From a virus (lineage: Duplodnaviria > Heunggongvirae > Uroviricota > Caudoviricetes), in IMG/VR virus record IMGVR_UViG_3300042870_001966: a DNA stretch of 64,000 bases; one strand, given 5' to 3'. Each line of letters begins with the position of its first letter. Position 1 is the first letter of the stretch. Position numbers and translations under genes: made by a program. Of this stretch, positions 22,349 through 48,755 are shown in pieces. The notes beneath the pieces are model-generated. The model was given only the letters and a program-made list of their open reading frames with translations, was not told the origin of the DNA and searched no databases.

Positions 22349-22435
22349 GCCGTAGCGCTGAAGTTGGAGAGTCAGGACAGACTGTAAATCTGTTGTCGTA
22401 AGGCTGAGTAGGTTCGAATCCTACCTGCGGCACCA
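22349..22435 (+). tRNA. tRNA-Tyr(GTA), type II
   Basis: AGACTGTAAATCTG anticodon arm identical to E. coli Tyr; CCA encoded. Confidence 0.75.
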
Positions 22436-22486
22436 AGTAGTTTTGAGGTGGGCGAATTCTACTCTAAAAAAATAATCCCTCCACCA

Positions 22487-22560
22487 GGACCTTTAGCTCA
22501 GTTGGTTAGAGCAGCGCACTCATAATGCGAAGGTCTCAGGTTCGAGCCCTGAATGGTCCA
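22487..22560 (+). tRNA. tRNA-Met or Ile2 (CAT)
   Basis: Loop CTCATAA; one acceptor mismatch. Confidence 0.65.
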
Positions 22561-22644
22561 CAAATTTTTTAGATTTTTTATCATCCGATTAAACCTAAAT
22601 CGATTTTTAATAGTATAGTAATAGTGTATCTTAATTTAAAACAA

Positions 22645-27900: not shown

Positions 27901-28449
27901 ATGACAACTGTAGATAAAATTAAGAGCCTAATTTCAGCAATTTCAAAAAGAGGAATTGGCCATACTGAGCTAATGAGGCAAGGAACTAATCACTACGATC
28001 GACCCTTTGCTATTGTTGCAAATACAATGGACTCCGCAAAGCGATTGGCCGGCGAGTCTGACCTCGCTACACCAGTTACGATAAGTAATATTGATCACTT
28101 AATAGGATCAGATTTGCCAGTTGCAATAGATCATTACCAAGTTCAGCAATTACTACAGTCAGCTCTAATTGAGATTTCCGATAGAGATTTTAAATTACAG
28201 AGAGCAATGACCATCCAGGAAAAGATGATGACACTTGTTGAATTGTATCAGAAGAGAGCTCATGAAATTGAGTCAATTAGTTCAGATCTATTGGCATGTA
28301 ATTGGTGGGACGTTAAGAAGATTATCTCTACTGAACGTAAGCTTCATAAAGCAATCTTAAAATACAATACTGAATACGATGGTATTGCCCAAACGTTTGA
28401 CACCTTAACTAAAATAGCAAAACATACACATGAGACTACTAACTCTTAA
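27901..28449 (+). CDS. hypothetical protein
   Basis: ORF only. Confidence 0.45.
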   Translation: MTTVDKIKSLISAISKRGIGHTELMRQGTNHYDRPFAIVANTMDSAKRLAGESDLATPVTISNIDHLIGSDLPVAIDHYQVQQLLQSALIEISDRDFKLQRAMTIQEKMMTLVELYQKRAHEIESISSDLLACNWWDVKKIISTERKLHKAILKYNTEYDGIAQTFDTLTKIAKHTHETTNS

Positions 28450-29359
28450 TCTAGCAAATCCGGAAAACGAAGGACGAGACCACTTTGAAAGAAGTGCATT
28501 CGTTGATTTCAAAGTTTCAAAGTTTGCTGACGGTCAACAGTCATTAACTCTAACTGGCGATATGCGTGGAAACTTAAGTTACCTACACGAAGCTGATGTC
28601 GTAATAAAATCTAGACTAAATAACTTCAAGGATCTTGAGTTAATTATCTGTGCAAATCAGGCTCTTCGCGAATGTGGAGTCGCGACAGTTTCCCTGTATG
28701 TTCCCTATTTCTTGGGAGCACGTAGTGACCGTAAATTCTCAGAAGGTTCTTCAAATTACCTAAAGACCGTTATTTGCCCAATCATTAATTCTCAGAAATT
28801 TGAATCTGTGCAGGTTCTGGATCCTCACTCTGATGTATTGGAAGCCTGTCTCAATAATTTCCAAAAAGTATCTAATTACTTACTCGTTAAGTACGCGCTT
28901 ACTGATATTGATAACACGAATCAGGCAAGAGAGAATATTGTTCTTGTTTCTCCAGACGCAGGTGCTCTAAGGAAAATTTACAAAGTCGCTGACTGGTTTG
29001 ACTTAAATGAGGTGGTGACTGCGGTAAAGCACAGAGATCCAAAAACCAGTAAAATCACTCACACCGATATTTCCTTAAAACCATTAGTGCATGAGTACGG
29101 CAAGAAATTCGTTATCGTGGACGATATTTGCGATAGTGCTGGAACTTCAATTGAATTAGCAAAAGCAATCAAGGAGAGAACTCAAGATTCGAAAATATAC
29201 TTGATAGCGACCCATGGAATTTTCAGTTCAGGATTATTTGATCTTTCTGCATACTTCGAAAAAGTTTACTGTACAAATTCAGTACAGGATATTAAAGCTG
29301 ACGAGTACTCTGACTACACAGTTAGCGCAGATTTCGTAAAACAATTTAACTTATTTTAG
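28430..29359 (+). CDS. prs: ribose-phosphate pyrophosphokinase (PRPP synthetase)-like
   Basis: VPYFLGARSDRK resembles PYfgYaRQDRK. DDICDSAGT PRPP-binding loop. Confidence 0.6.
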   Translation: MRLLTLNLANPENEGRDHFERSAFVDFKVSKFADGQQSLTLTGDMRGNLSYLHEADVVIKSRLNNFKDLELIICANQALRECGVATVSLYVPYFLGARSDRKFSEGSSNYLKTVICPIINSQKFESVQVLDPHSDVLEACLNNFQKVSNYLLVKYALTDIDNTNQARENIVLVSPDAGALRKIYKVADWFDLNEVVTAVKHRDPKTSKITHTDISLKPLVHEYGKKFVIVDDICDSAGTSIELAKAIKERTQDSKIYLIATHGIFSSGLFDLSAYFEKVYCTNSVQDIKADEYSDYTVSADFVKQFNLF

Positions 29360-29728: not shown

Positions 29729-30397
29729 ATGAAAATTACATTACAGCCTCATCAGCGAATATGGTTCACGTCAGATACTCACTACAAACACTCAAATATT
29801 TGTAGAGGAACGTCTAATTGGCCGGCCGAGAGTAAGACCAGAGATTTCGATACCCTGGATAAAATGAATGATACGATTGTTAACAATATCAATCACCTAG
29901 TCAGCGAAGACGATATTCTTTTCCACTTAGGAGACTGGTCGTTCGGAGGATTTGATAACATCCAGGAGTTCAGAGACAGGTTGCTCTGTAAGAACATTCA
30001 TTTGGTTCTAGGTAATCACGACCAGCACATCGAGAATGACAAGGGAGGAGTCAAGGCTCTATTTGCATCAGTGAATCATTACGTTAGACTGGAACTTACT
30101 GTTCCAAACGTGCCGAACGAAATAAATCCAGCGAAGACTATTAAGAAAACGTTTGTGCTATGTCATTACCCAATCGCAAGTTGGCACGATATGAACCGTG
30201 GAGTAATTCAATTACATGGTCACGTTCACTTAGGCCCACACAATAAATTACATGCAGGTAAAGCAATGGACGTTGGCATGGACGGCAACTTCATGGACCC
30301 ATATTCTCTTCAAGAAATCGCAAAGATTATGAGAGACCGTCCAGTTAAGTGTTTGGTTTTACCGAACGATCACCATGAAACAAACGAAGGAAGATGA
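29729..30397 (+). CDS. calcineurin-like metallophosphoesterase
   Basis: SDTHY...GDW...GNHD...HGHVH motifs. Confidence 0.7.
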   Translation: MKITLQPHQRIWFTSDTHYKHSNICRGTSNWPAESKTRDFDTLDKMNDTIVNNINHLVSEDDILFHLGDWSFGGFDNIQEFRDRLLCKNIHLVLGNHDQHIENDKGGVKALFASVNHYVRLELTVPNVPNEINPAKTIKKTFVLCHYPIASWHDMNRGVIQLHGHVHLGPHNKLHAGKAMDVGMDGNFMDPYSLQEIAKIMRDRPVKCLVLPNDHHETNEGR

Positions 30398-30831
30398 TAC
30401 AGAATACACACAATAAAATCGGCGAGGGTAATCGACTCCTTGCGCAATTCATGGGAGGCACAATTGTCTCTAGTGAAACCTACGAAATGCCACACGGCTC
30501 AAACGGCAAAGGCGTCTTTGAAAAATGGGGTGGACTCTCTGGAATTCCCAGTCACGATCAGGAATTGGCTGCACTTGGAATATTTAGATATGAAACCTCA
30601 TGGAGCTGGATTTTTCCAGTAATCGAAAAGATCGAGAGTCTTGGTTTCTGCGTCAGCATTCACCGTAGAGGAATTCAAATTATTAAGTACGACAAGGATC
30701 GAAGATTTGAAGCGACTGACCTAATTATCGATGAAGACTTCTTAGATGATTATTCTGGAGATGTTAAGCGAATTGCTGCATGGGACTGTTGCGTTTCTTT
30801 TGTTGACTGGTACACAAAGAGGAGCCAATAA
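30394..30831 (+). CDS. hypothetical protein
   Basis: ORF only. Confidence 0.45.
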   Translation: MIQNTHNKIGEGNRLLAQFMGGTIVSSETYEMPHGSNGKGVFEKWGGLSGIPSHDQELAALGIFRYETSWSWIFPVIEKIESLGFCVSIHRRGIQIIKYDKDRRFEATDLIIDEDFLDDYSGDVKRIAAWDCCVSFVDWYTKRSQ

Positions 30832-31217
30832 TGGAATTAACGGGACCCTCTAAACTAGTAGTCGCATCCAGTCCAATACACGGACTTGGAGTATTCGCAA
30901 CGCAATCTATTAGCCCAGGCGAGATTATTGAAGAATGTCATTTCATAACATTCGATGCGACATCAGATGATCCTATTTTTAATGATTATCGATTCATAGT
31001 CGGCCGTTCTGAGAAATTAGGCTGCGTAGAGTATGGCGTTCTTCTTGGATTCGGAGGAATCTACAATCACAGTGAAACTCCAAATATAAATTGGAGACAT
31101 GATACTGAAAAGAATTGTTTTACGTTCTTTGCACTAGTCGATATTAATCCAGGAGACGAATTGTGCTCGTATTACGGAGGGCCTGAATATTGGAAATCAA
31201 TTGGTATGGAAATTTAG
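30831..31217 (+). CDS. SET-domain protein (putative lysine methyltransferase)
   Basis: GLGVFA..GE.I, NHSETPN, GDELCSYYG SET motifs. Confidence 0.6.
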   Translation: MELTGPSKLVVASSPIHGLGVFATQSISPGEIIEECHFITFDATSDDPIFNDYRFIVGRSEKLGCVEYGVLLGFGGIYNHSETPNINWRHDTEKNCFTFFALVDINPGDELCSYYGGPEYWKSIGMEI

Positions 31218-31226
31218 TATAATAAC
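31216..31226 (+). promoter_or_regulatory. AGTATAATAAC motif
   Basis: Upstream of the flotillin gene. Confidence 0.45.
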
Positions 31227-31291
31227 AAAGTAGTTAGCTAATCGGGCTAATGTAATCTCTATATTTTAATAATTAATAAAAACAAAAAAAA

Positions 31292-32725
31292 ATGACAGAA
31301 ATCATCACATCATCACTTATGTACGGACTACCGGCCTTAATAGGGGTAATCGTATTTTTTTATGCACTATCTCTACGTCGAATCGTGCCAACTAACGTAG
31401 TCCACATCGTTCAACGAGGAGACAAAACTGTTTCCTATGGCGTAGGTAAAGGCTCTAACGTTTATTATGAGTGGCCGAAGTGGTTACCTAAAATCGGAGT
31501 TATGGTCAGATCATTGCCAGTATCTAACTTTGATATTGACTTAGCTAAATATTCAGCGTATGATAAGGACCGTGTCCCTTTCGTAGTTGACGTTAAGGCA
31601 TTCTTCCACATTGCTGATACAAATAAAGCTGCCGAGAAAGTAGAATCATTTGACGAGTTGAAAAAGCAGCTGGAAAATGTAGTTCAAGGAGCAGTTCGTT
31701 CTATTTTAGCAAAGTCTAAATTGGAGGAAATTATGGAAGAACGATCTATCTTTGGCGAAAAATTTACTGAAAGTGTTAAAGTTGATTTATCTAATTGGGG
31801 AGTTGAGCCTATTAAAAATATCGAGTTAATGGATGTTAGAGATACTGACGGTTCGAGCGTTATTCACCAGATTATGGCTAAGCGAATGTCTGCGATTGAT
31901 ATGGAATCCAGAACTGAAGTTGCTAAAAACACTAAATTGGCAGAGCAGGCGGAACTAACTGCTCAACAAGAAATTGATGTAACTAAAGCAGAAACTCAGA
32001 AAATTGCAGGAGAGGCGCAAGCTCAATCAATACAGGCAATCGGTATTGCCAAAGCAGAGGCTACAAAAAAGGCAGGTATTGCAGAACAAGAGTCAATATC
32101 AGATATCGCTCAAGCTGAACGAGCTACTGCTGAACAGCAAATGGAGGTCGTTAAAGTTAATGAGATTAAGCAGGCTGAAATTGATAAGGAAAAGGCAATT
32201 ATTGCAGCTGAGCAACAAAAACGCAAAACTGAAATTGACGCAGAGGCTAATAAATTTAGAATTGAGACTGAGGCTTCTGCTACACTTGAAGCACAGATCA
32301 AAAATGCAGAAGGTGTTAAAACTCTGGGCCAAGCAGAAGCAGATATTATTAAAGCAAAGGGTATATCGCAGGCTGAATCCAAGAAAGCAATGGAGCTTGC
32401 TGGAGTAACTGCCCAAACAACCCTAGCAAAAGAGATTGGCGAAAACAAATCTTACCAAGAATACTTGATCAAAATTAGAGAAGTTGAAGTAACTCAAGTA
32501 GTCGGAGTTGCACAATACGAATCGATGGCAAAAGCAATGGCTGGAGCTGACTTGAAACTATTGGTAAATAGTGGAGACGTACACTCAGGAATTGGCAAGT
32601 TAAGCGACCTATTCACAGCTAAAGGAGGTTCACAGATTAACGGGCTTCTTGAATCATTGAAACAGACACCTGAAGGTAAAGGCTTACTGGCTATGCTTAA
32701 CAAGCTTACACCAGGCGCAGAATAA
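31292..32725 (+). CDS. SPFH/band-7 (flotillin-like) membrane protein with long coiled coil
   Basis: N-terminal TM helix, SPFH core, QAE/KAE-rich heptads. Confidence 0.65.
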   Translation: MTEIITSSLMYGLPALIGVIVFFYALSLRRIVPTNVVHIVQRGDKTVSYGVGKGSNVYYEWPKWLPKIGVMVRSLPVSNFDIDLAKYSAYDKDRVPFVVDVKAFFHIADTNKAAEKVESFDELKKQLENVVQGAVRSILAKSKLEEIMEERSIFGEKFTESVKVDLSNWGVEPIKNIELMDVRDTDGSSVIHQIMAKRMSAIDMESRTEVAKNTKLAEQAELTAQQEIDVTKAETQKIAGEAQAQSIQAIGIAKAEATKKAGIAEQESISDIAQAERATAEQQMEVVKVNEIKQAEIDKEKAIIAAEQQKRKTEIDAEANKFRIETEASATLEAQIKNAEGVKTLGQAEADIIKAKGISQAESKKAMELAGVTAQTTLAKEIGENKSYQEYLIKIREVEVTQVVGVAQYESMAKAMAGADLKLLVNSGDVHSGIGKLSDLFTAKGGSQINGLLESLKQTPEGKGLLAMLNKLTPGAE

Positions 32726-32741
32726 TTTTTAATAAATTTAA

Positions 32742-32778
32742 GACAAAAAGTCTCTAGATTTGTCTAGAGACTTTTTTA
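32742..32778 (+). terminator. rho-independent terminator
   Basis: GTCTCTAGAtttgTCTAGAGAC followed by TTTTTT. Confidence 0.65.
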
Positions 32779-32806
32779 TTTTGGTATAATAGTAAAAAGA
32801 AATAAC

Positions 32807-33544
32807 ATGACAGCACCATTTGAATTTTACGAAGTAGGCGGAAAGGTAAGAGACGAGATCTTGGGACTTCAGTCCAAAGACGTTGATTACGTAGCCGTGC
32901 CGAAAGCAACTCTGCTTGAGGAATTTCCTGAGGCGGCTGATATGTTTGACTTGCTAGTTGACTACTTAACTCGTGAAAAATTCCAGATATTCCTGATCAC
33001 CAAAGAATGTTACACAATCAGAGCAAAATTTCCAGACGGACATAAGTACCAAGGAGTTGCTGATTTTGTAATGTCTAGAAAAGAGACTGGATACGTGCCG
33101 TTTACCAGAACTCCGATCATTAAGCCTGGAACCCTATTCGACGATTTACAGAGAAGAGACTTTACTCTTAATGCCCTGGCAAGAGAAGCGGACGGCTCGA
33201 TCATTGACTACTTTGATGGGCTGACTCACTTGAAGCTTGGGCTATTAGTAACGCCATTACCTTGCGAGGAAACGTTTCACGATGATCCTTTGAGAATCTT
33301 GAGAGCTATTAGATTTTCAATCACTAAAGGATTTACTATCCCTGAGGAAATGTCTCAAGTAATAAAGCACTACGATTACGAAGTTAAGATGTGTGTAGTA
33401 TCAGCTGAGAGAATCAGGGAAGAGCTCTTTAAGTGTTTCAAACATGACACTCATGCAACGATACTTAAGTTATCAGAGTACCCTTTCCTTATGGAATACA
33501 TTTTTAGAACACAAATCTGGTTAAAACCAACAATGGAAGAATAA
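32807..33544 (+). CDS. cca: CCA-adding tRNA nucleotidyltransferase (head/neck domains)
   Basis: GGKVRDEILG, DVDY, RRDFTLNA motifs. Confidence 0.75.
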   Translation: MTAPFEFYEVGGKVRDEILGLQSKDVDYVAVPKATLLEEFPEAADMFDLLVDYLTREKFQIFLITKECYTIRAKFPDGHKYQGVADFVMSRKETGYVPFTRTPIIKPGTLFDDLQRRDFTLNALAREADGSIIDYFDGLTHLKLGLLVTPLPCEETFHDDPLRILRAIRFSITKGFTIPEEMSQVIKHYDYEVKMCVVSAERIREELFKCFKHDTHATILKLSEYPFLMEYIFRTQIWLKPTMEE

Positions 33545-34098
33545 TGGAAGCAACAATAAATGGAAGAATAATGGAAGCAAAAATAAACTGGGTTCTAGAC
33601 CAACATAGAGACACGAATCACATGTACGATAAGTACTTGCCTTATGAATTTCATTTACGTATGGTCGTTGAAGTTGCAAAGAAATTTCAATCTTTAATTA
33701 CGTATGAGAAAGATTTTGAGCATGTACTACTTGGAGCATGGGGCCATGATCTTATTGAAGACACCAGAGTTTCATACAATGATGTTAAGCAGGCGCTTGG
33801 AGAAATGGCAGCAGATATTGTCTATGCGTGCTCAAACGAGAAAGGCAAGAGTCGTAATGATCGGGCTAACTACCGATACTACGATGGAATCAGAACAACG
33901 CCGTATGCGATATTCGTTAAGTTATGCGACCGAATTGCAAACGTGCAGTACTCAAAAATGTCTGGCAGCAGAATGTTCGAGATGTACAGAAAAGAAAATC
34001 CCGAATTCATGCAGCAATTAGGCTGGACGGCTGAAGAAAAATATCTTCATGAGTATGCCAATATGTTTGTATACTTAAGTAAATTATTCGAAGACTGA
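33544..34098 (+). CDS. HD-domain phosphohydrolase (stand-alone)
   Basis: H..GHDLIEDT...D motifs. Adjacent to the CCA enzyme, as in bacterial fused CCA enzymes. Confidence 0.65.
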   Translation: MEATINGRIMEAKINWVLDQHRDTNHMYDKYLPYEFHLRMVVEVAKKFQSLITYEKDFEHVLLGAWGHDLIEDTRVSYNDVKQALGEMAADIVYACSNEKGKSRNDRANYRYYDGIRTTPYAIFVKLCDRIANVQYSKMSGSRMFEMYRKENPEFMQQLGWTAEEKYLHEYANMFVYLSKLFED

Positions 34099-34117
34099 AA
34101 ATAAAAAAATTAATATA

Positions 34118-35320
34118 ATGGAAAATCAAAACAGCGTATGTTACATTGGAAAAGTAACAGAAATCAAGGCAATCGAAGGAGCTGACAATATTGAGTTAGC
34201 GATCATCGGTGGATGGAATTGTATTACTAAAAAAGGACTACACAAGGCGGACGAATTTGTTATCATTGCAACAACTGATGCAGTTATTCCGGAAGAGTTA
34301 TCCGAAAAATTGGGAGTAACCGGTTACCTGCGTAAGGGCAATCGAGTTAGAACAGTTAAGTTGAGAGGAGTTTACAGTGAGTGTCTAATCATTCCGCTTA
34401 ATGTGCTTGAAGGTTCAGAAGAAATGAAGATCGGAGTTAGTAAACAGCCTTGGGGCGATCAATTACAGTTGGGCCCTTATGACGATGCACTCGTTATTGA
34501 AGAAGGAGTTGACGTTAGTGAGATGCTTGGAATTTTCAAGTACGAACCGCCAGTTAGACAGGTCCAACTTGCTTCAGGTAAAAAGGTTCGTTATCAAGAC
34601 AATCCAAACTTTCATGTCTACTACAAGTTTCCTAACTTGAAAAATGTTAGTGGAATGTTTACTGAAGAGGATATTGTGCAAATCACGCGTAAGATCCACG
34701 GTACGAATGCACGATACGGTATAGTTAAGAAGAATCGCTTGTCCTTCATGGATAGGATTAAAAAATTCTTTGGATTCGCCGGAGAGCTCTTTGAGTACGA
34801 GTACGTTTATGGATCTCATAATGTCGAGAAGGGTTCTGATTCTCAAGGGTTCTATTCAACTGATGTCTGGAGAACAATTGCCGAGAAGTACGATATCAAG
34901 AACAGGTTGCTTACCTTAGCAAAAACTAAAAATAGGATTGGTGAACTTGGAGCTGGTATTGTAATTTACGGAGAAATTTACGGTGCAGGTATTCAAAAGA
35001 ATTACGAGTACGGTCTGACTGATATTGAATTCGTTGGATTCGATGCCACAGTAAACGGCAAATACGAGTCCACTATTTACACTGAATTCCTTTTCAAAGA
35101 AGCGCTAGAGTTACCTCACGTTGGAGTCCTATACACAGGACCGTGGTCACAAGAGACACAAGACCAGTTCGTCTTTGGTAATATGATCAAAGGAACTAAG
35201 GTGCCGCATGAAGGCATTGTTATTAAGCACATAAGCGGTGAGCGTAATCGAGTAGCAAAGGTAATTAATCCAGACTATTTGATTTACGGAGAAAAGCACG
35301 ATATTGGAGACTCACATTAA
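34118..35320 (+). CDS. ATP-dependent RNA ligase (Rnl2-like motifs) fused to N-terminal tRNA-binding OB (Myf/Trbp111-like) domain
   Basis: N-terminal GKV.EI..IEGADNIELA..GG tRNA_bind pattern. Ligase motifs KIHGTN (I), EGIVIK (IV), AKVIN (V). Confidence 0.65.
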   Translation: MENQNSVCYIGKVTEIKAIEGADNIELAIIGGWNCITKKGLHKADEFVIIATTDAVIPEELSEKLGVTGYLRKGNRVRTVKLRGVYSECLIIPLNVLEGSEEMKIGVSKQPWGDQLQLGPYDDALVIEEGVDVSEMLGIFKYEPPVRQVQLASGKKVRYQDNPNFHVYYKFPNLKNVSGMFTEEDIVQITRKIHGTNARYGIVKKNRLSFMDRIKKFFGFAGELFEYEYVYGSHNVEKGSDSQGFYSTDVWRTIAEKYDIKNRLLTLAKTKNRIGELGAGIVIYGEIYGAGIQKNYEYGLTDIEFVGFDATVNGKYESTIYTEFLFKEALELPHVGVLYTGPWSQETQDQFVFGNMIKGTKVPHEGIVIKHISGERNRVAKVINPDYLIYGEKHDIGDSH

Positions 35321-35334
35321 TAAAACAAATACAA

Positions 35335-35808
35335 ATGGAAGAAGAAAAATTACCGATCAGAATCTATTTAGATGACGTTCGAACACCAATTGAACAGGAC
35401 TGGATAGTTGTTAGATCATACCAGGAGTTCAAGGACAAGGTGATGGAAATTGGATTAAAGAACATTCACATGATCTCATTGGATCACGACTTGGGTGACT
35501 CAGCTATGTCAGAGTACTTCACGAATGTAAGTCCTAACTATAAGCTAGACTACACGAACATTACTGAAAAAACTGGAATGGATTGCACTAAGTGGTTGGT
35601 GAATCAGTTCTACGACGAGAATCCAAAGAGAATTGAGATGAGTCGTTTCGATAAGCGTAATGTGCCGATTCGGTTTCCAGCAGTCTACGTACACTCAGCG
35701 AATCCAATTGGATCAGCGAACATGATGGGTTACATTAATAACTTCTTCATGAATGAGGGAGAACCTCAAAACTGCGTGAGAGTTCAGATACCTCACACGG
35801 TAATGTAA
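35335..35808 (+). CDS. hypothetical protein
   Basis: ORF in the RNA-repair block. Confidence 0.45.
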   Translation: MEEEKLPIRIYLDDVRTPIEQDWIVVRSYQEFKDKVMEIGLKNIHMISLDHDLGDSAMSEYFTNVSPNYKLDYTNITEKTGMDCTKWLVNQFYDENPKRIEMSRFDKRNVPIRFPAVYVHSANPIGSANMMGYINNFFMNEGEPQNCVRVQIPHTVM

Positions 35809-35829: not shown

Positions 35830-36372
35830 ATGAAAGTTGTACAAGAATTTCCTAACGGGCTTATATCAGTTTATCCATCCGTGTTTGGCGATGAAAGAGG
35901 ATTTTTTCTAGAATCGTTTAATCAGCTGAAATATTCTGAATTTCTTAATGAGCATTCATTTGTTCAGGATAATTTATCTAGATCCAAAAAAGGAGTCCTT
36001 CGTGGATTGCATTTTCAAGCTCCACCGTTTGATCAAGGAAAATTGGTTCAGGTAATTACAGGAAGCGTGTTGGATGTTGCGGTAGATATTCGTCGAGACT
36101 CTCCAAGCTACGGTAAATCCTTTCAAGTTGTATTAAATACGACTGATCGCAATCAACTTTGGATTCCACCAGGCTTTGCGCATGGCTTCGTTAGCCTAGA
36201 AGACGACACTATTTTTTCCTATAAATGCACAAACGGTTATTCAAAAGAACATGAAGGCTGTATATTATGGAATGATGCGGACTTAGCGATTGATTGGGAA
36301 ATTGAAAATCCTATCATTTCGGATAAAGATCAATTGGGAACCCCGTTTAAAGAGTTAATCAGCCCATTCTAA
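35830..36372 (+). CDS. rmlC: dTDP-4-dehydrorhamnose 3,5-epimerase (RmlC, cupin)
   Basis: LRGLHFQ and ERGFF motifs. Confidence 0.8.
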   Translation: MKVVQEFPNGLISVYPSVFGDERGFFLESFNQLKYSEFLNEHSFVQDNLSRSKKGVLRGLHFQAPPFDQGKLVQVITGSVLDVAVDIRRDSPSYGKSFQVVLNTTDRNQLWIPPGFAHGFVSLEDDTIFSYKCTNGYSKEHEGCILWNDADLAIDWEIENPIISDKDQLGTPFKELISPF

Positions 36373-36435: not shown

Positions 36436-36464
36436 TTTATAACAAAACAAACGTTCTTTAAGTT

Positions 36465-36545
36465 GCCCTCTTGGCGGAATTGGTAGACGCGCTAGACTTA
36501 GGATCTAGTCTTAGGGTGAGAGTTCGAGTCTCTCAGAGGGTACCA
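36465..36545 (+). tRNA. tRNA-Leu(TAG)
   Basis: Class-II D-arm TGGCGGAATTGGTAGACGC. Loop CTTAGGA. Short (9 nt) variable region. CCA encoded. Confidence 0.6.
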
Positions 36546-36697
36546 AACACATATCACAAATAAAAATGTGAGTTACTTTGAAATAGCCAATTATAAGCCA
36601 ACATAAAGCCGTTGGGTACAGAAGGAGTAATTAACCGGAGTATAGGCAACAATTGTGACACTGTAACAAATACCCATTTGAGTGGTATGTTTTAAAT

Positions 36698-36818: not shown

Positions 36819-36984
36819 CGATTGTTAACACGCTTGCTTCGTGTTGAAATTGTCAGATAACGTGCAACGATAGTTTAAAGACTGTAGAAAAAGAAACACT
36901 GACTGGAAGGATTCTTATGGACGCATAAGAAGTAAAAGTCCACAACTAAACCTACTTACAATTGGCAAGGTAAATTGAATTAAG

Positions 36985-37012
36985 GCGATCGATCTAACGG
37001 TCGCCTTTTTTA
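36985..37012 (+). terminator. rho-independent terminator
   Basis: GGCGAtcgatctaacggTCGCC followed by TTTTTT. Confidence 0.55.
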
Positions 37013-37025
37013 GTATATTAGACTT

Positions 37026-37769
37026 ATGAAAGTACTACACAAACAGGAGAATTCAAAGCTTATTAATTATGAGTTGTATGAAATCGCTCCAAAGATTTAT
37101 GCAGTCTTGGCAAAGGACTCTTTTGAGAGAGCGATGCTCTTTCTTAGAGCACAAGAGTATTATGAATCCCCTTTTCCTGAATTTAGAGGACAGGACTTTG
37201 ATATTTTTGTCTACATGAATCGTTACCGAAAAGAGAGATCAGCTAACTATTTTAGTTACACAGCGGACTGGAGCGGATACAATGTTCCTAGCGAATCTCT
37301 TGAAGCCTGTATGCGAGGAGTTTATCAGTATCATACTGACATAACTTCGTACGATCATGAAATGACAGAGGTTGTGTCTATTATTAGACAGTACCAGAAA
37401 AAAGGTAAGTTCTATCTACTTGGAGTCGATTCATTGGAATCAAGAGTAATGGATCATGAATTTGCTCACGGGCTATTCTATACAAATAAGGCGTATAAAA
37501 CCGAGATGATGGAGTTAGTATTATCTTTAAAGCGAGATCTATACGAACAGCTTGAAAGCTACTTGATTCAAATCGGCTACACAAGCCACGTAATCGCGGA
37601 TGAGATTCAGGCTTATATGGCGACAGGATTAACGGCAACGATGGCAAAGACCAGAGGCTCAGTTACGGCAGCTAAGAAATTCGAAAAGATATTTAAGAAA
37701 TACAAGAAACAATATGGCAAACACGATAATATCAATAACCCTAAACGACAAGCAGCAGAAAAAGTTTGA
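37026..37769 (+). CDS. hypothetical protein with HExxH motif
   Basis: HEFAH. Confidence 0.45.
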   Translation: MKVLHKQENSKLINYELYEIAPKIYAVLAKDSFERAMLFLRAQEYYESPFPEFRGQDFDIFVYMNRYRKERSANYFSYTADWSGYNVPSESLEACMRGVYQYHTDITSYDHEMTEVVSIIRQYQKKGKFYLLGVDSLESRVMDHEFAHGLFYTNKAYKTEMMELVLSLKRDLYEQLESYLIQIGYTSHVIADEIQAYMATGLTATMAKTRGSVTAAKKFEKIFKKYKKQYGKHDNINNPKRQAAEKV

Positions 37770-37903
37770 TGCTTGGGGTAAGCACCTAAAAGCCCTGTTT
37801 GGCGAATGGGGAAACTTAACCTGGACAGTATCATCATGTGGAATCGGAGACACAATCACTGTCACTAGCAGCAATGCACCAAAACATCCATTAGACTTAA
37901 CTG

Positions 37904-38212
37904 ATGTCGGTAGCTGGTAAGGAACGTTGCGACTGCGGAAAGATCGCAACTTGGTGTTACGGGCCAGGTTATAGAGATGGAGGTAATCCAAATTCATGTG
38001 ATGATTGTGTCTCTCGTGGATGTGATTGTAATCACAATTACGTTAGTGTAAACTCGTATCATCCACCACTAGACTCACCTAATTTACCGGAAGGCGAAGA
38101 GGGAGTTGACTGGAAGTGGATTAAAGCTGATAAAGTTTGGTGCTGGATTGATGAGCGCGGTAGAGAATATCCATGCTGTGAGTACGACTACATAATAGGA
38201 TCAGAAGATTAA
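37904..38212 (+). CDS. Cys-rich hypothetical protein
   Basis: Multiple CxC/CxxC pairs. Confidence 0.4.
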   Translation: MSVAGKERCDCGKIATWCYGPGYRDGGNPNSCDDCVSRGCDCNHNYVSVNSYHPPLDSPNLPEGEEGVDWKWIKADKVWCWIDERGREYPCCEYDYIIGSED

Positions 38213-38223
38213 TTAAACGAAAT

Positions 38224-38604
38224 ATGAGAATAGCAGTAATTGCACACGATAATAAAAAGGCGGACATGGTGGCATTCATCATGAAGCGTCTTGATTTTTT
38301 TAAGCAGCACGAGGTTGTTGCAACTGGTACGACCGGTACTCACATTGAGCATGCAGGTCTTGAGGTCGACCGAATGAAGTCTGGACCGCAAGGCGGAGAC
38401 GCTCAGATCGCAGCAGAGTTAGTCAACGGTAAAATAGATGGAGTTATCTTCTTTATTGATCCATTAACTGCACATCCGCATGAAGTTGACGTTCAAATGT
38501 TACTTAGATTGTGTAATGTGTATAATATTCCTATTGCAACGAACTATTCGACTGCAAGCTTGTTGATACAGGCAGTTTCTTCTAAAAATAACAACGATAA
38601 ATGA
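38224..38604 (+). CDS. mgsA: methylglyoxal synthase
   Basis: IALVAHD..K, ATGTTG, SGPxGGDxQ, IDxxIFFxDPL..PHxxDV..LLRL...IPxATN align along the whole MgsA length. Confidence 0.8.
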   Translation: MRIAVIAHDNKKADMVAFIMKRLDFFKQHEVVATGTTGTHIEHAGLEVDRMKSGPQGGDAQIAAELVNGKIDGVIFFIDPLTAHPHEVDVQMLLRLCNVYNIPIATNYSTASLLIQAVSSKNNNDK

Positions 38605-40337
38605 GTAAACTCACACGGGACTTTGAAGAGTTCATAAAAGGTAAACATCCGAGCATTGAGTTTAGACCTCAGCAAAAAGAAGCGATAATCGATATTATTT
38701 CAGCATACGAAGAAGACCATAATGGAATTTATCTACTTGATGCGCCGACTGGATCAGGCAAGTCAGTTATCGCAATGTTATTTGCTGATTTTCTTGCATT
38801 TAAGGGAAATCGCGGCTATATCTTAGCATCTGACCTCTCTCTTCATGAACAATACGTCAAAGATTTTAAAAAGTTGCAGGTATGGAATTGGGGTAATATA
38901 AAAGGTGTTGATAACTACCGATGCGTTGTGAACGACGAGAAATTTTCAGTCGGTGAGTGCAAGAGTAAAGGAACCTCTTATGAAAAGGCTGAATCTCTTC
39001 CGTGTTTCAAACAATGTGGCTACTTGACCTCAAGAAAAAAGGCAATCAAGTCGCCAGTCTCTCTGTTAACCTATCCATACGCCCTGATTCAACGAAATTA
39101 CGTTGAGCAAAATCAGCAAGGCAACGGTAAGGGCTCCCCATTTCCACAAAGAGATTTTGTAGTATGCGATGAGGCCCATAAGCTACTTGATATTGTACAG
39201 AGCCATTTCAGTCCAATCGTTTCGCATGAAATTGTTAAAAAGACTGAGAGCTTAATTGAAAGCACCGGCGATATTGGCCAAAAGATACCACAAGTGGACA
39301 CTGAACGATTAGCAAAAGTGATTGATATGATTTACGAACAGGAGGATCATGGCAACTTGCTTAAATTACTTAAGGAGGTTACTAGACTCTTGAGCATTGC
39401 AGTTCAGGCAACCTCTTCGCTTAGAGAAAATGCATCAATTGAATTTTTAGAGGGCAGCATTCCATCCGAATGGTTGGCTGTCTTTGGCATGGCGGACTGG
39501 TGTAAGGACGTTCACTGTAAACTAGAAGACTATTGTAAAATCATTGAACAAGTAGGTCTTGAGAAGCTCGTAAAGAATCCTGGCGAAAAGTCAATCACAT
39601 TCAACTGTATCGATGAGTACTACCTATTACAGAAACACTTCTTTACGAAATTTGGATTCAAGTTACTGATGACTGCTACAATGGGCAGTCCCAGCGATTT
39701 CATGAGAAATCACGGAATCAAGAAGGCTAAGTACTTTAAGATTGAAAGTCATTTCAATTGGGAGAAGTCACCTATCATTTTCTATCCAGGTAAAAAAATG
39801 TCAACCAGATTCCTACAAGAGAATCTACAATGGGCAATTGATTCAGTAACCAGAATAGTCAGGGAGAACTCTGAGCACTCCGGAATCATTCATTCAGGTT
39901 CTTATGAATTGAATACTAAGATCTGGACAGGTCTTCCCAAAGATGTTAAGAAACGCATTGTTCTCTATAAAGGATCTGAAGAGAAAGAGATCGCGCTAAA
40001 GATAATGAAGAAGAAGAAGGCAATGGTACTGATGGGTCCATCTATTCTTGAAGGCTTGAACATGGTTGACGACCAGAGTAGATTCCAAATCTTCTTAAAG
40101 GTTCCGTACCCTCATCTCGGCGACAAGTACGTTGCTGCTAAATTGGAATACAGCCAGCAATGGTACAATTGGAAGACCTCAATCGCTGTCCTGCAAGGAG
40201 TAGGCCGCTCAATACGTACACCTGAGGATTGGGCGGTGACTCATCTACTTGATGGATGTTTCGCAGACCTAATGAAATCCGCAGGTGATCAATTCCCACC
40301 TGACTTCAAAGCGAGATTGCGAATAGAGTATAAATAA
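38601..40337 (+). CDS. Rad3/DinG-like DNA helicase with Fe-S cluster
   Basis: Walker A APTGSGKS, DEAH-like VCDEAH, four-Cys cluster. Confidence 0.7.
   Translation: MSKLTRDFEEFIKGKHPSIEFRPQQKEAIIDIISAYEEDHNGIYLLDAPTGSGKSVIAMLFADFLAFKGNRGYILASDLSLHEQYVKDFKKLQVWNWGNIKGVDNYRCVVNDEKFSVGECKSKGTSYEKAESLPCFKQCGYLTSRKKAIKSPVSLLTYPYALIQRNYVEQNQQGNGKGSPFPQRDFVVCDEAHKLLDIVQSHFSPIVSHEIVKKTESLIESTGDIGQKIPQVDTERLAKVIDMIYEQEDHGNLLKLLKEVTRLLSIAVQATSSLRENASIEFLEGSIPSEWLAVFGMADWCKDVHCKLEDYCKIIEQVGLEKLVKNPGEKSITFNCIDEYYLLQKHFFTKFGFKLLMTATMGSPSDFMRNHGIKKAKYFKIESHFNWEKSPIIFYPGKKMSTRFLQENLQWAIDSVTRIVRENSEHSGIIHSGSYELNTKIWTGLPKDVKKRIVLYKGSEEKEIALKIMKKKKAMVLMGPSILEGLNMVDDQSRFQIFLKVPYPHLGDKYVAAKLEYSQQWYNWKTSIAVLQGVGRSIRTPEDWAVTHLLDGCFADLMKSAGDQFPPDFKARLRIEYK
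40329..40336 (+). promoter_or_regulatory. T4 late-promoter-like TATAAATA
   Basis: Exact TATAAATA 5 nt upstream of the ATG at 40342. Confidence 0.45.
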
Positions 40338-40341
40338 CTCT

Positions 40342-40926
40342 ATGAAACACCTTAAACTATACGAAGAATTTGATCTTGACAGATTCCTAGACAATCCAGA
40401 AAAGGAATTAGCTGATGACAATTCACCAGAGATCAATGTAGGAAATTACGTTGACTCATACCGAGGTAAAGGCCAAGTGCTTGATATCGATAGCGATTTT
40501 GCAAAAGTTGAATTACATAACTCAAAAGGCAATATTGTTAAAGTTCCAGTTTTTGCTCTAACTAAAATATCTCACGAAGACCTAACTTCAGCCAAGGTCG
40601 GAGATTCTCAAGCTGAACTTGCGGAGCTAGTGAGTCAGGCCAGACAGTACAATGATTACCTTGACTCAACTGAAGATTATGATAACGAAGATGAAGAGGA
40701 TGGAGTTTACTCAGCAAGTCAGGTAAATTTCGATACCCTACTAGCATATATTCAAGATACAACGATCGATGTTATCTCTATTAAAAATAACGATAGTGCA
40801 TACGATACCTATTCAGAATATCACGAACTGATTAATTTAGTCGGCTCAATCGCTGGAGCAATTCAGAGAGCAAGACCGGACTTAATGGATGAAGTTGATG
40901 CAGCACTAGACAATTTCCCAGGATAA
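40342..40926 (+). CDS. acidic hypothetical protein
   Basis: TATAAATA lies immediately upstream. Weak CTS-like N-terminus LKLYEEFD. Confidence 0.5.
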   Translation: MKHLKLYEEFDLDRFLDNPEKELADDNSPEINVGNYVDSYRGKGQVLDIDSDFAKVELHNSKGNIVKVPVFALTKISHEDLTSAKVGDSQAELAELVSQARQYNDYLDSTEDYDNEDEEDGVYSASQVNFDTLLAYIQDTTIDVISIKNNDSAYDTYSEYHELINLVGSIAGAIQRARPDLMDEVDAALDNFPG

Positions 40927-42257
40927 TGAGACTTAAACGATTTACACAATTCGTTAATGAAAATACTGATGATGCTGAAGAATTAGCAGCATTAGGTTTT
41001 AATTCAAAGATTGACACGGATGAAATTCAAGGATTAATGGCCGAATACAACCCAGAGGAGAAGACCGACACGACATTAGGTTTCGATTTGGGATTTGATA
41101 TGACAGCTGATGATTTAGGACTTGATCCAGAAAGAGCAGAGGCTGCTGAATTAGATAGCGTGTTCCTTGTTCAGTACTATGTTGATTTCGACTTTGAGAC
41201 AATGAAATCTAAAGTACAAGTGGCAGTCTTAAATTCTGGGATTGATTTTGACGGTGCAGGTAATGCGTATGAAGTTGATTTTAAACTGGATTCAGAAAAT
41301 CACGATTCTCAAGGAATCGCTGATGAGTTAACTCAGATTTTGCAGCGAATTGAATACGAAGGCATGTTTGTAGACATGGCAGTCGATATAGTAAATGACA
41401 TAATCGATAGACGTCTTGGAGAAGTATCAGAAAAGAAGAAACTTAAATGGCATGATTCTGATGAGCCTAACACAAAAGGAAAATTCATAATTGAGAACTT
41501 ATCTGATGAAGAAGCTGCAGAACTAAGAGCAATGGGTTTTGGTGGAGTTGACACTGATGCAATCGCAGAACTAGTCAATGGAGCAACTGCAGAAGATCAA
41601 ATCGTTATTGTTTCAGGCCAGTTCAATCAATCTATAGATGATTACGGAATAGATTCATCCGAATATCCGGATATAGAAAGAGACGTATGGACTGATTTTG
41701 AAGTCAGAATAAACTTTATCGATGAAACTGTTAAGTCGTCAGTTAGTGTCGCACAAAAAGATATCGGACTTTACGAAGATGCTGAACTTGAAGACTATGA
41801 ATGGTCTGACCTATTCCAAAATGGAGATCCAGTTTCAATGAAGTCTAATGAGATAGCTGAAGATATTGAACTCTTTATGAGTGCCGTAACTGGTTTCGAA
41901 GACTCGCTTGGAATGTACGACAAAATTCAAGATCTTTTAAATAAGGCAATTGAGGAACAGTATCACAGATGGGATGACGAAGAAGATGATGAAGCTGATG
42001 AAGATGAAATTTCAGAAAAGAAAAAACTTAAATGGCACGATTCTGATGCACCTGATGCAAATGGAAAATTCAGAGACCTTGGAGTTAATAAATTAGCGGA
42101 TTGGTTAATCAGAACAAGAGGTGGTAACATGCAAAAGATTACTGGATCGCTAAATCAACAAATTAATTTTAACAAGCGAAAAAATCCAAGTTATGCCAAG
42201 AAAATGGAGTCGACTCGGGAAGCAGTTAAAAGAAAATTAGCAAAAAGAAAAGAATAA
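40926..42257 (+). CDS. acidic protein with CTS-like N-terminus (MRLKRFTQFVNE) and internal duplication
   Basis: EKKKLKWHDSD(E/A)P..GKF occurs twice. Confidence 0.55.
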   Translation: MRLKRFTQFVNENTDDAEELAALGFNSKIDTDEIQGLMAEYNPEEKTDTTLGFDLGFDMTADDLGLDPERAEAAELDSVFLVQYYVDFDFETMKSKVQVAVLNSGIDFDGAGNAYEVDFKLDSENHDSQGIADELTQILQRIEYEGMFVDMAVDIVNDIIDRRLGEVSEKKKLKWHDSDEPNTKGKFIIENLSDEEAAELRAMGFGGVDTDAIAELVNGATAEDQIVIVSGQFNQSIDDYGIDSSEYPDIERDVWTDFEVRINFIDETVKSSVSVAQKDIGLYEDAELEDYEWSDLFQNGDPVSMKSNEIAEDIELFMSAVTGFEDSLGMYDKIQDLLNKAIEEQYHRWDDEEDDEADEDEISEKKKLKWHDSDAPDANGKFRDLGVNKLADWLIRTRGGNMQKITGSLNQQINFNKRKNPSYAKKMESTREAVKRKLAKRKE

Positions 42258-42393
42258 ATAAAACCAATTAGAAATATTGTAGTATATTATTAACATGAAA
42301 ACATTATCCTTACATTCACTTTGTTTACGTTCGTTGAGATTAAGTCTCGATGTGTCTAGGCCGTGATGTAAGATAAGAAAACTTCTACTGAAA

Positions 42394-42427
42394 AGGCTTA
42401 GACTAACGTTTAAGCCTTTTTTGTTTT
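42394..42427 (+). terminator. rho-independent terminator preceding tRNA cluster
   Basis: GGCTTAgactaacgttTAAGCC followed by a T-run. Confidence 0.6.
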
Positions 42428-42428: not shown

Positions 42429-42498
42429 GGTCAGTTTGGTCGTGGAGGCCGTCAGGTCTGCAAAATCTGAGGAGTTGGTTCGATTCCAACATTGACCT
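42429..42498 (+). tRNA. tRNA-Cys(GCA)
   Basis: Loop CTGCAAA. Confidence 0.65.
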
Positions 42499-42506
42499 CA
42501 AAAACT

Positions 42507-42590
42507 GGAAGAGTAATTCAGCTGGCGCTGGACCTAGTCTTGAAAACTAGTGGTACCTTCGGGTATGGGGATCGATACCTCACTCTTCCG
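42507..42590 (+). tRNA. tRNA-Ser(TGA)-like, type II, non-canonical T-loop ATCGATA
   Basis: 8-bp acceptor. Anticodon arm CTAGT-CTTGAAA-ACTAG. Variable-arm hairpin with TTCG loop. Confidence 0.5.
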
Positions 42591-42605
42591 CTCGTTCTTT
42601 TACAT

Positions 42606-42683
42606 GGTAGACGTAGCTCAGTTGGTTAGAGCGCCTGATTGTGGTTCAGGAGGTCGTCGGTTCGATCCCGATCGTTTACCCCA
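42606..42683 (+). tRNA. tRNA-His(GTG) with encoded G-1
   Basis: Loop TTGTGGT. G-1 pairs with C73. CCA encoded. Confidence 0.75.
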
Positions 42684-42686
42684 ACT

Positions 42687-42762
42687 GCCTCTGTGGGTAA
42701 ACTGGTAAAGCCGCTTGACTTAGGATCAAGAGATTTTGTGGGTTCGAATCCCACCAGAGGTA
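42687..42762 (+). tRNA. tRNA-Leu(TAG)-like, type-I length (7-nt variable region)
   Basis: Anticodon arm CTTGA-CTTAGGA-TCAAG; T-arm GTGGG-TTCGAAT-CCCAC. Confidence 0.55.
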
Positions 42763-42769
42763 CAAAAAT

Positions 42770-42850
42770 GCTCCCGTGGTGAAACTGGTAAACACGCTCG
42801 GCTTAAGATCGAGTGCGCAATGCTTGTGGGTTCGAGTCCCACCGGGAGTA
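42770..42850 (+). tRNA. tRNA-Leu(TAA), type II
   Basis: Loop CTTAAGA; 12-nt variable region. Confidence 0.7.
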
Positions 42851-42855
42851 CTAAT

Positions 42856-42943
42856 GGAGAGTGAAGCAACAAGGTGTTGTCGCCGCCTGCTAAGCGAGCG
42901 GTTCCCGAAAGGGAATGGGGATCGAGACCTCCACTCTCCGCCA
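42856..42943 (+). tRNA. tRNA-Ser(GCT)-like, type II, non-canonical T-loop ATCGAGA
   Basis: Acceptor GGAGAGT/ACTCTCC plus CCA. Bulged anticodon stem, loop CTGCTAA. Variable-arm hairpin TTCCC-GAAA-GGGAA. Confidence 0.5.
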
Positions 42944-42944
42944 T

Positions 42945-43018
42945 AGTCCAGTAGCTCAGTGGAATAGAGCAACCGCCTTCTAAGCGGTAGGTCGCAGGTT
43001 CGAGTCCTGCCTGGATTA
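42945..43018 (+). tRNA. tRNA-Arg(TCT)
   Basis: Loop CTTCTAA. Confidence 0.75.
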
Positions 43019-43042
43019 CAAATTATTTAGTACAATATAGCT

Positions 43043-43273
43043 ATGGAAGAAATAACAAACGCAGAAAGAGAATTCATGTTCTATAAGATTGGAACAGCTG
43101 GATCGTTTCACACAGCCTTGATTCAGACAATTATGAAGGCTGATATTCGTAATCAGGCTAAGCTTGCACTAGGTTTTCCCGAAGATGTTCAAGTGGTTCA
43201 ACGTTTTCAAAACGAAAGTGGCTACTGGGAAGGTCTGCAAGAGCGCTGGAAAGCTGCACATAACCGAAACTAA
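43043..43273 (+). CDS. hypothetical protein
   Basis: ORF between tRNAs. Confidence 0.4.
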   Translation: MEEITNAEREFMFYKIGTAGSFHTALIQTIMKADIRNQAKLALGFPEDVQVVQRFQNESGYWEGLQERWKAAHNRN

Positions 43274-43282
43274 TTAGTACCT

Positions 43283-43355
43283 GCCCCGGTAGTTCAATGG
43301 ATCAGAACACACGGCTACGGACCGTGAGATGGGGGTTCGAATCCCTCCTGGGGTA
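43283..43355 (+). tRNA. tRNA-Arg(ACG)
   Basis: Loop CTACGGA. Confidence 0.7.
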
Positions 43356-43370
43356 CTTAACTTAATCAAC

Positions 43371-47942: not shown

Positions 47943-48183
47943 AACCGTCCAGGACATTACTCACGGAATAGTTGCAGTAAGACGAGACGATAAAAAGAAT
48001 GAAATGTACGTTCTGCATTTTTGTGGGTTCTTTGAAGAGCCTAGCGCTGCAGACTACGACCACCTACGAAAAGAATTAGAAGAGGATCCTGAATTTGGAT
48101 TAACTGATCAGGAATTTGAATTAATCGCAGCGACTCCTCAAATGCTGGAGTACGTCAAAAATGATGCAAATCAAGGTAACTAA
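47926..48183 (+). CDS. hypothetical protein
   Basis: ORF only. Confidence 0.35.
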   Translation: MSSEDKTVQDITHGIVAVRRDDKKNEMYVLHFCGFFEEPSAADYDHLRKELEEDPEFGLTDQEFELIAATPQMLEYVKNDANQGN

Positions 48184-48755
48184 TGAAGGTAATTTTTTTA
48201 GACCATGATGGAGTTATTTGCCTAGCTACTGAATGGGGAAGTCGATTTAAGAAGACTAAAAGGTCTAAGACTGCGATGCAAATTAATACTAAAGACAATC
48301 CAGTTGAGTTTAGATTTGACAACTTTAATCAGAAAGCAGTTTCAATACTTAACGATATTATAAAGCAGACTGATGCTGAAATTGTAGTAAGTTCAGATTG
48401 GACACGTTGGGCGACCGTTGAAGAAATGGGCGAGTATTATGAATCAAAGGGCATCTGTAAAAAGCCGATCGCATTTACCCCAGACCTAAAGGACTGTACT
48501 GTGCATGGAAGTATTTTTATCTGGTCACCGGATTGGGATCTTGAACAAGTAAGATCTATTGAAATTAAGCAGTACTTACACGATCATCCTGAAATAACTC
48601 ATTGGGTTGCAATTGACGACTTAAACATGGGTAAAAGCGGCGAGAGTTGGAAAGATGTGTGGGCCTTAGATAATTTCGTACTTACACCAAAGCGAATGGA
48701 AGGCATTAAGCAGTCTGGAATAAAGGATAAAATCTTAAAATTTTTAAAGGATTAA
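48183..48755 (+). CDS. HAD-family phosphatase, Pnk 3'-phosphatase-domain-like
   Basis: VIFLDHDGVI (DxDG nucleophile motif) and WVAIDD motif resemble T4 Pnk VIFDVDGTL / LAIDD. Confidence 0.5.
   Translation: MKVIFLDHDGVICLATEWGSRFKKTKRSKTAMQINTKDNPVEFRFDNFNQKAVSILNDIIKQTDAEIVVSSDWTRWATVEEMGEYYESKGICKKPIAFTPDLKDCTVHGSIFIWSPDWDLEQVRSIEIKQYLHDHPEITHWVAIDDLNMGKSGESWKDVWALDNFVLTPKRMEGIKQSGIKDKILKFLKD

Follow-up and report, generated by a model that had tools for sequence, protein, structure and literature searches.

Methylglyoxal synthases (MgsA) release inorganic phosphate (Pi) from dihydroxyacetone phosphate (DHAP) under phosphate limitation and are inhibited by Pi (PMC11850910). Viral copies of the gene have already been flagged by annotation pipelines: one lies on a 120-kb viral scaffold from oligotrophic Lake Baikal, which has a T4-like virotype and recruited as much as 8.8% of the reads of a virome sample (PMC8066274), and others are entries in automated tables of auxiliary metabolic genes (AMGs) for plastisphere viromes (PMC12397222) and brine-pool viruses (bioRxiv 10.1101/2024.01.25.577265). 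In all three reports the gene is a KEGG call alone, filed under propanoate or methane metabolism. Within the full-text literature we found viral mgsA only in such automated AMG tables, and a paper on large aquatic Bacteroidota phages ('moraphages') makes no mention of it. Here we describe an mgsA gene carried by a 64,000-nucleotide stretch of viral DNA (IMG/VR record IMGVR_UViG_3300042870_001966), referred to below as the window, together with its homologues in related phages.

The metabolic genes known from phages act for the most part to raise nucleotide, photosynthetic or pentose-phosphate supply, and the cyanophage AMGs talC, CP12, zwf, gnd, pstS and phoH act in central carbon and phosphate metabolism. 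The window mgsA resembles these cyanophage genes in being a metabolic gene of host origin that large T4-like aquatic phages retain under purifying selection, with a plausible part in tuning carbon flux or phosphate supply towards nucleotide synthesis, and differs from them in encoding a glycolytic branch-point enzyme with a toxic product, the hosts apparently being heterotrophic Bacteroidota rather than cyanobacteria. The viral mgsA genes of the automated lists are probably of the same kind; those lists, unlike the present analysis, do not look into catalytic residues, phylogenetic position, gene order or selection. The enzyme is an ordinary one, and it is the physiology that is unusual. What is new here is a checked active site, an origin in a single clade near Bacteroidota, purifying selection over a long time, a cassette-like mobility, and neighbouring phosphoesterase and RNA-repair genes that turn up again and again.

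Identity and active site of the window MgsA

On whole-protein profile scores, the window open reading frame (ORF) is a genuine methylglyoxal synthase (EC 4.2.3.3), and this identity is secure. It scores 173.4 bits against the equivalog profile NF003559 (cut-off 84, E 2e-51) and 166.5 bits against the equivalog profile TIGR00160 (cut-off 146.9), with 59.6 bits against PF02142, and it matches 11 solved MgsA chains with E values of 3e-36 to 6e-29. A first-pass annotation, made from the sequence without database searches, had aligned the ORF with MgsA along its whole length, and the two profile scores and the catalytic residues bear this out. The motifs that it quoted are all found in the 126-residue product, as AHDNKK (residues 7-12), ATGTTG (33-38), SGPQGGDAQI (53-62), KIDGVIFFIDPLTAHPHEVDVQMLLRL (70-96) and NIPIATN (101-107). 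It had also allowed that a search with PF02142 and TIGR00160 might instead point to the methylglyoxal synthase (MGS)-like domain of CarB or PurH, lacking the catalytic Asp and His. The search assigns the ORF to MgsA equivalogs and both residues are present; CarB and PurH are far behind in structure, with distant matches only (template modelling score (TM) 0.55-0.72, 14-19% identity), so this candidate is ruled out. Conversion of DHAP to methylglyoxal and Pi is the reaction that follows from family membership; members of the family are homohexamers.

Functional residues were mapped from the Escherichia coli MgsA sequence, confirmed identical to PDB 1B93. E. coli His19, Asp20, Lys23, Thr45, Thr47, Thr48 and Ser65 correspond to H8, D9, K12, T34, T36, T37 and S53 of the window enzyme, and Gly66, Asp71, Asp91, Pro92, His98, Asp101 and Arg107 to G54, D59, D79, P80, H86, D89 and R95. 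All 14 catalytic and phosphate-pocket residues are therefore present, and none of them varies among the phage copies that extend over them, the three truncated ORF calls of the relatives L018-L020 missing the N-terminal H8, D9 and K12. The catalytic set (D59, H86, D89, H8, D9 and D79) is complete, and the phosphoryl-binding pocket (K12, T34, T36, T37, S53 and G54) is present and invariant. From E. coli mutagenesis and structural work we take Asp71 to be the catalytic base, with His98 and Asp101 essential; structures of the H98N and H98Q mutants (1S89, 1S8A) are among the PDB matches of the window enzyme. An AlphaFold2 model built on 44 homologues reached a predicted local distance difference test score (pLDDT) of 86.9 and a predicted TM (pTM) of 0.81, and a Foldseek search of the PDB puts MgsA structures in all of the first 26 ranks (TM 0.84-0.88, root-mean-square deviation 1.6-1.9 Å, 45-54% identity). 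Judged by these residues and this fold, the window MgsA is very probably catalytically competent, and it is of the short type.

The window enzyme shares its length class with short-type bacterial MgsAs of 119-137 aa (Bacillus subtilis 6F2C; Thermus 1WO8, 2X8W and 2XW6; Flavobacterium; Ekhidna), to which it is 51-60% identical (TM 0.87-0.88) with the same catalytic and phosphate-binding residues. Unlike these it is encoded by a phage, and the clade in which it falls consists of phage enzymes only and is marked by four conservative substitutions. The B. subtilis enzyme is under the control of Crh. Compared with the E. coli enzyme (1B93; 49% identity, TM 0.85-0.86), with which it has the 14 functional residues in common, the window MgsA lacks 11 N-terminal residues and the C-terminal tail: 19 residues follow the PIATN motif rather than the 33 in E. 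coli, and no residue aligns with Arg150. In E. coli this arginine forms a salt bridge to the neighbouring subunit and transmits the phosphate allosteric signal between subunits (PMC4133812). The closest Bacteroidota enzymes (119-124 aa) also have no C-terminal tail, so its absence reflects ancestry and not phage innovation, and loss of the tail as a phage-specific deregulation trick is ruled out.

Origin, spread and selection of phage mgsA

The window belongs to a large T4-like phage with a genome of roughly 270 kb. Its T4-type portal protein (gp20), which we used for lineage placement, has its best tblastn matches in the uncultured huge phage LR756500 (462 kb, 41.7%) and the Prevotella Lak megaphages (34.5%). 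The window also encodes a family B DNA polymerase (PolB), a topoisomerase II subunit and 26 tRNAs, and together with the portal these confirm the phage context that the first-pass annotation had given the gene. The hosts are most likely Bacteroidota, as judged from type IX secretion system (T9SS) and gliding-type domains, the MgsA phylogeny and the Lak and huge-phage relatives of the portal. A protein that combines a cohesin domain with a C-terminal sorting domain of the T9SS is encoded in the window (10960-12882, minus strand), and in the relative L022 a large protein with a gliding-motility-type C-terminal domain (10402-12864) is encoded directly after mgsA.

The identical MgsA protein is recorded on 49 contigs of up to 271 kb. 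A pattern-based scan of IMG/VR gathered at least 124 contigs with relatives, up to 373 kb long, and the 80 kept for analysis fall into 28 groups (29 with the window) at <95% MgsA identity, many of these contigs being 200-373 kb. The gene order orf247, orf68, orf102, mgsA, helicase, orf194, orf443 recurs on independent contigs. As expected of an AMG, mgsA is a host-type gene inside a viral genome, with phage genes on both sides and on syntenic viral contigs of up to 373 kb. Its GC content (0.412) and GC content at third codon positions (0.378) compare with 0.394 +/- 0.015 and 0.361 +/- 0.067 in the neighbouring genes.

Neighbour-joining places the phage MgsAs together in one clade, with the Ekhidna and Flavobacterium enzymes (55-60% identity) as sisters. 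Phage copies in the main clade are 70-93% identical to their nearest phage neighbour and 54-67% identical to the nearest cellular enzyme, and the closest cellular homologue is about 60% identical. The ratio of nonsynonymous to synonymous divergence (dN/dS) is 0.03-0.31 (median 0.17) over the 40 pairs with dS <1.5; all other pairs are saturated at synonymous sites, with dN of 0.1-0.3. These ratios argue that mgsA is under purifying selection in the viral lineage and is not a recent passenger. Four positions separate the phage clade from cellular MgsAs (N to R22, L to F26, L to I/V31 and A to V67), all conservative changes and none in the active site, and these clade-specific substitutions give no sign of active-site remodelling or neofunctionalisation. 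The single clade, the purifying selection and the four changes outside the active site therefore indicate one old capture from a Bacteroidota-like donor, followed by long retention with the catalytic machinery unchanged.

A 1.9-kb contig in a Flavobacteriaceae metagenome-assembled genome (MAG) encodes an MgsA (L084; CBFHOD010000112.1) that is 96% identical to that of phage locus L056 and falls inside the phage clade. Most probably this contig comes from a phage and was binned wrongly, although it could be a direct link to a host. The betaproteobacterial MgsAs L109-L113 (Comamonadaceae, 'beta proteobacterium' MAG contigs and Rhodoferax lacus), at 51-52% identity, are among the closest cellular matches and lie mostly on short MAG contigs of 6-27 kb.

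The first-pass annotation had called the gene a rare AMG. This is right for cultured and curated phages, the window MgsA having no family match in PHROG, and does not apply within its own lineage of large uncultured aquatic phages, where the gene is common and old. A tblastn search of the GenBank phage collection gave 22 matches, all below 54% identity and on unannotated records. One of these (L150; MT835478.1 78179-94535, 'Bacteriophage sp.') is bacterial chromosome carrying mreB, mreC, PBP2, minC, minD, rodA, mgsA and a D-Ala-D-Ala carboxypeptidase gene, and the mgsA-bearing 'Listeria phage LM' record (L151; OR848172.1) is flagged UNVERIFIED_ORG. Independent acquisition of mgsA by other GenBank phages thus finds no support, the examined record being bacterial and the Listeria record being flagged. 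These two records, which bear the flags UNVERIFIED or UNVERIFIED_ORG, are contaminants in the phage collection.

Gene neighbourhoods and possible roles in infection

Directly downstream of mgsA is a gene for a helicase, which the first-pass annotation described as DinG-like, with a start that overlaps the mgsA stop; the ATGA overlap can be read from the sequence. The product matches the PHROG family phrog_2488 ('DNA helicase', 331 bits) and the PADLOC model typeIV_DinG (184 bits) and scores well below every NCBIfam DinG or YoaA equivalog cut-off, so 'DinG-like' is the right level of claim. Translational coupling of the two genes through the overlap is possible. The same-strand string of genes that holds mgsA and the helicase, bracketed by two terminator-like hairpins recognised from a consensus scan only (Table 1), is a putative operon.

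The linkage to the helicase is a real local arrangement in the window and is not a conserved pairing. A helicase gene lies downstream of mgsA in only four of the 29 groups, and among 17 loci anchored on the helicase mgsA is directly upstream in eight and missing from that position in nine. The slot between orf102 and the helicase gene (equivalent to 38212-38601 of the window) is empty in L160 (5770-5977) and holds a calcineurin-like phosphoesterase gene and a GT2 glycosyltransferase gene in L155 (4596-5998) and L162 (4543-5969). On these comparisons the slot is a cassette hot spot, and a functional mgsA-helicase pair is unsupported. The copies of orf102 are 53-80% identical in L001, L002, L005, L006 and L152-L163, with or without mgsA, and orf247 is kept at 54-57% identity in relatives, its HEFAH motif reading HEMAH in L002. 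We found no Pfam or PHROG family match for orf102, and none in Pfam, PHROG or PADLOC for orf247.

Other neighbours recur more often. A calcineurin-like phosphoesterase gene of either of two families lies directly downstream of mgsA in some groups, and in the 373-kb phages the two genes overlap by 4 nt (in L147, mgsA at 8001-8378 and Metallophos at 8375-9031); in other groups cREC is the immediate neighbour, with RNA ligase genes nearby. Counted per group and taking no account of phage kinship, a calcineurin-like phosphoesterase, cREC or RNA ligase gene lies within three genes of mgsA in 13 of the 29 groups and adjoins it in 10. The linkage occurs in at least four gene orders (e.g. L003, L011, L016, L017, L025-L052 and L147) and is not seen in the more distant subclade L055-L080 or in seven other groups. 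In the window itself an RNA-repair-type cluster (29729-35808) lies 2.4-8 kb upstream of mgsA and contains the phosphoesterase, cREC and RNA ligase families that are direct neighbours of mgsA in other phages of the lineage. Given the kinship of these phages, such company may be a reshuffled ancestral accessory module. Across these arrangements mgsA appears as a flexible accessory gene occupying several genomic contexts.

From these observations we infer the timing of expression, the inhibition by Pi and a benefit through phosphate or overflow as follows. Large T4-like aquatic phages, most likely infecting Bacteroidota, would carry mgsA as a flexible AMG, captured once from a Bacteroidota-like donor and then shuffled among accessory slots. 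The enzyme would probably be made together with replication-phase products, since its gene lies in a same-strand string and is possibly coupled to the helicase gene. In the infected cell MgsA would turn host DHAP into methylglyoxal and Pi, and the benefit would most likely be the classical physiological role of the enzyme, now controlled by the phage: under phosphate scarcity or a build-up of triose phosphates, it would free phosphate from sugar phosphates and keep upper glycolysis running, both of which would feed the large nucleotide demand of the phage. Inhibition by Pi would make the enzyme self-limiting, and host detoxification would take methylglyoxal on to lactate and pyruvate. Such a role fits the nucleotide demand of a large phage in aquatic habitats, and it fits the recruitment of reads to the mgsA scaffold from oligotrophic Lake Baikal (PMC8066274).

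It is very probable that phages keep a functional MgsA as an AMG. That its role is specifically phosphate release or relief of triose-phosphate overflow is a tentative proposal that could well prove wrong, and the explanation as a whole, AMG and benefit together, merits moderate confidence, a grade that is a compromise between its two parts. Several points weigh against it. A Pfam scan of ~57 of the longer ORFs in the window, itself one part of a genome of roughly 270 kb, found no phoH, pstS or glyoxalase gene, and so nothing seen in the window connects mgsA with phosphate stress or with the detoxification of methylglyoxal. The gene is dispensable, with nine of 17 close relatives lacking it at the helicase slot, and the phosphate model leaves unexplained why an infecting phage should bear the cost of making a toxic electrophile. 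Further, the neighbour-joining tree rests on 118 columns, and its cellular sampling is biased by the pattern-based search.

The first-pass annotation had suggested two effects of a phage copy, a rewiring of host glycolytic overflow and growth arrest. In line with the second, methylglyoxal itself may instead be the purpose, arresting host growth or macromolecular synthesis or damaging competing elements. It is a strong toxic electrophile (PMC11850910), the enzyme is intact, no glyoxalase is encoded among the scanned window ORFs, and the accessory region is rich in conflict genes (Tad6, Acb1-like 2H, cREC and HAD_SAK_2). However, indiscriminate damage to nucleic acids and proteins would strike phage replication too; moreover, the enzyme keeps the phosphate pocket through which Pi inhibits those MgsAs that have been characterised, so its output would still depend on metabolic state. 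No partner gene for self-protection was found, and no experimental precedent in phages is known. We regard a methylglyoxal weapon as fairly unlikely, and a phosphate or overflow role as the likelier of the two. The recurrent neighbours raise another prospect, in which MgsA was recruited to the RNA-repair and phosphoesterase module to act on a phospho-substrate other than DHAP or as part of a phosphate-scavenging set, and is MgsA by descent and not by role. The proximity and variety of gene orders described above, the 4-nt overlap with the phosphoesterase gene in the 373-kb phages, and the presence of another calcineurin-like phosphoesterase in the same slot of relatives without mgsA all speak for such recruitment. 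It is nonetheless quite improbable: the catalytic residues are invariant, the active site shows no clade-specific change, the equivalog cut-offs are exceeded, the linkage may be a reshuffled module inherited among related phages, and it is missing from the L055-L080 subclade and seven other groups. We can also join these two ideas and view MgsA as part of a phage conflict toolkit and not as a simple metabolic booster, working either with the phosphoesterase/cREC/RNA-ligase module, to scavenge phosphate or on a by-product of repair, or through methylglyoxal made to shut down the host or rival elements; this is unlikely, and if true would be a new use of an enzyme producing a reactive electrophile in virus-host conflict. 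We found no link in the literature between MgsA and either cREC or these RNA-repair modules, and the jumbo-phage comparative-genomics work that defined cREC is silent on MGS.

Finally, the gene could have entered a viral contig through misassembly of host DNA, or could be a recent capture without function. Records of this kind do exist, MT835478.1 having mreBC-PBP2-minCD-rodA beside mgsA and Listeria 'phage' records being flagged UNVERIFIED_ORG. In the window lineage, though, many samples have yielded independent contigs that repeat the gene order and have mgsA flanked left and right by phage genes, the composition of mgsA matches that of the phage, the nearest cellular homologue is ~60% identical against 70-86% among phage copies, and purifying selection persists beyond synonymous saturation. 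Synteny, composition, phylogeny and selection together rule out host contamination or misassembly, and a passenger or artefact is scarcely credible.

The viral gene described here is well conserved and acts at the triose-phosphate branch point, with a toxin as product and free phosphate as by-product. If phosphate release or overflow relief is the benefit, it would be a new viral route that reshapes carbon and phosphorus flow in phosphate-poor lakes, and would correct the filing of viral mgsA under methane or propanoate metabolism by annotation pipelines. The phages are large and abundant, and the probable hosts, freshwater Bacteroidota, are important degraders of organic matter. MgsA is small and easily assayed, and sister phages provide natural variants with the gene (such as L156 and L157) and without it (such as L153 and L155).

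Other features of the window

Coordinates of mgsA, its neighbours and other features are collected in Table 1.

Table 1. Features of the 64,000-nt window discussed in the text
Feature	Coordinates	Strand	Remarks
GT2 glycosyltransferase	217-921		
Sulfate permease family transporter	944-2086		
2H/Acb1-like phosphoesterase	3451-4002		
4HBT thioesterase	3993-4448		
Isolated tRNA-Ser gene	16904		
Tad6 homologue	17211-17909		Type I Thoeris inhibitor
ClpP protease	24484-25149		
PRPP (phosphoribosyl pyrophosphate)-synthetase-like protein	28430-29359		
Calcineurin-like phosphoesterase	29729-30397	+	
SET-domain protein	30831-31217		128 aa; lysine methyltransferase-like; between phosphoesterase and SPFH genes
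SPFH	31292-32725	+	
CCA-adding enzyme	32807-33544	+	
HD phosphohydrolase	33544-34098	+	
RNA ligase	34118-35320	+	
cREC	35335-35808	+	
dTDP-4-dehydrorhamnose 3,5-epimerase (RmlC)	35830-36372		
Isolated tRNA-Leu gene	36465-36545		
Terminator-like hairpin	36982-37007	+	10-bp stem and T run; just before the putative mgsA operon; would close the upstream unit
orf247	37026-37769	+	247 aa; HExxH motif (HEFAH); first gene of putative operon
orf102	37904-38212	+	102 aa; Cys-rich; directly upstream of mgsA
mgsA, methylglyoxal synthase	38224-38604	+	126 aa; ATG-to-TGA ORF; short type, without E. coli-like C-terminal tail
ATGA stop/start overlap, mgsA/helicase	38601-38604	+	TGA 38602-38604, ATG 38601-38603
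DinG/Rad3-family DNA helicase	38601-40337	+	578 aa; PF13307 (Helicase_C_2), PF04851 (ResIII), PF00270 (DEAD)
orf194 and orf443	40342-42257	+	194 and 443 aa; acidic; downstream of helicase and kept there in relatives
Terminator-like hairpin	42390-42421	+	14-bp stem and T run; follows the final gene of the putative operon (37026-42257)
HAD_SAK_2 domain protein	48183-48755		'Swiss Army Knife' HAD RNA-repair domain
ClpB/ClpA-like ATPase	50749-52731		Two AAA domains
NAD-dependent sugar epimerase/dehydratase	55589-56512	-	
T4-type portal (gp20)	56525-58207	-	PF07230, E 4e-66

The window is rich in RNA-repair and anti-defence genes, including those for calcineurin-like phosphoesterases, SPFH, the CCA-adding enzyme, the HD phosphohydrolase, RNA ligase, Tad6, the 2H/Acb1-like phosphoesterase, HAD_SAK_2 and cREC. 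It also holds host-like accessory genes, encoding the sulfate permease, the 4HBT thioesterase, the GT2 glycosyltransferase, RmlC and the sugar epimerase. A scan for sigma-70 promoters, with a tool unsuited to Bacteroidota-type promoters, gave no enrichment (14 found against 18.8 expected from shuffles).

The tRNA genes are arranged as an array of 18 (19603-22561), an array of six (42429-43356) and two isolated genes. At the DNA level the GenBank phage collection contains no close relative of the window, the sole match being the stretch around the isolated tRNA-Leu gene (36464-36546), which shares 84% identity with the uncultured phage LR756501 (735 kb).

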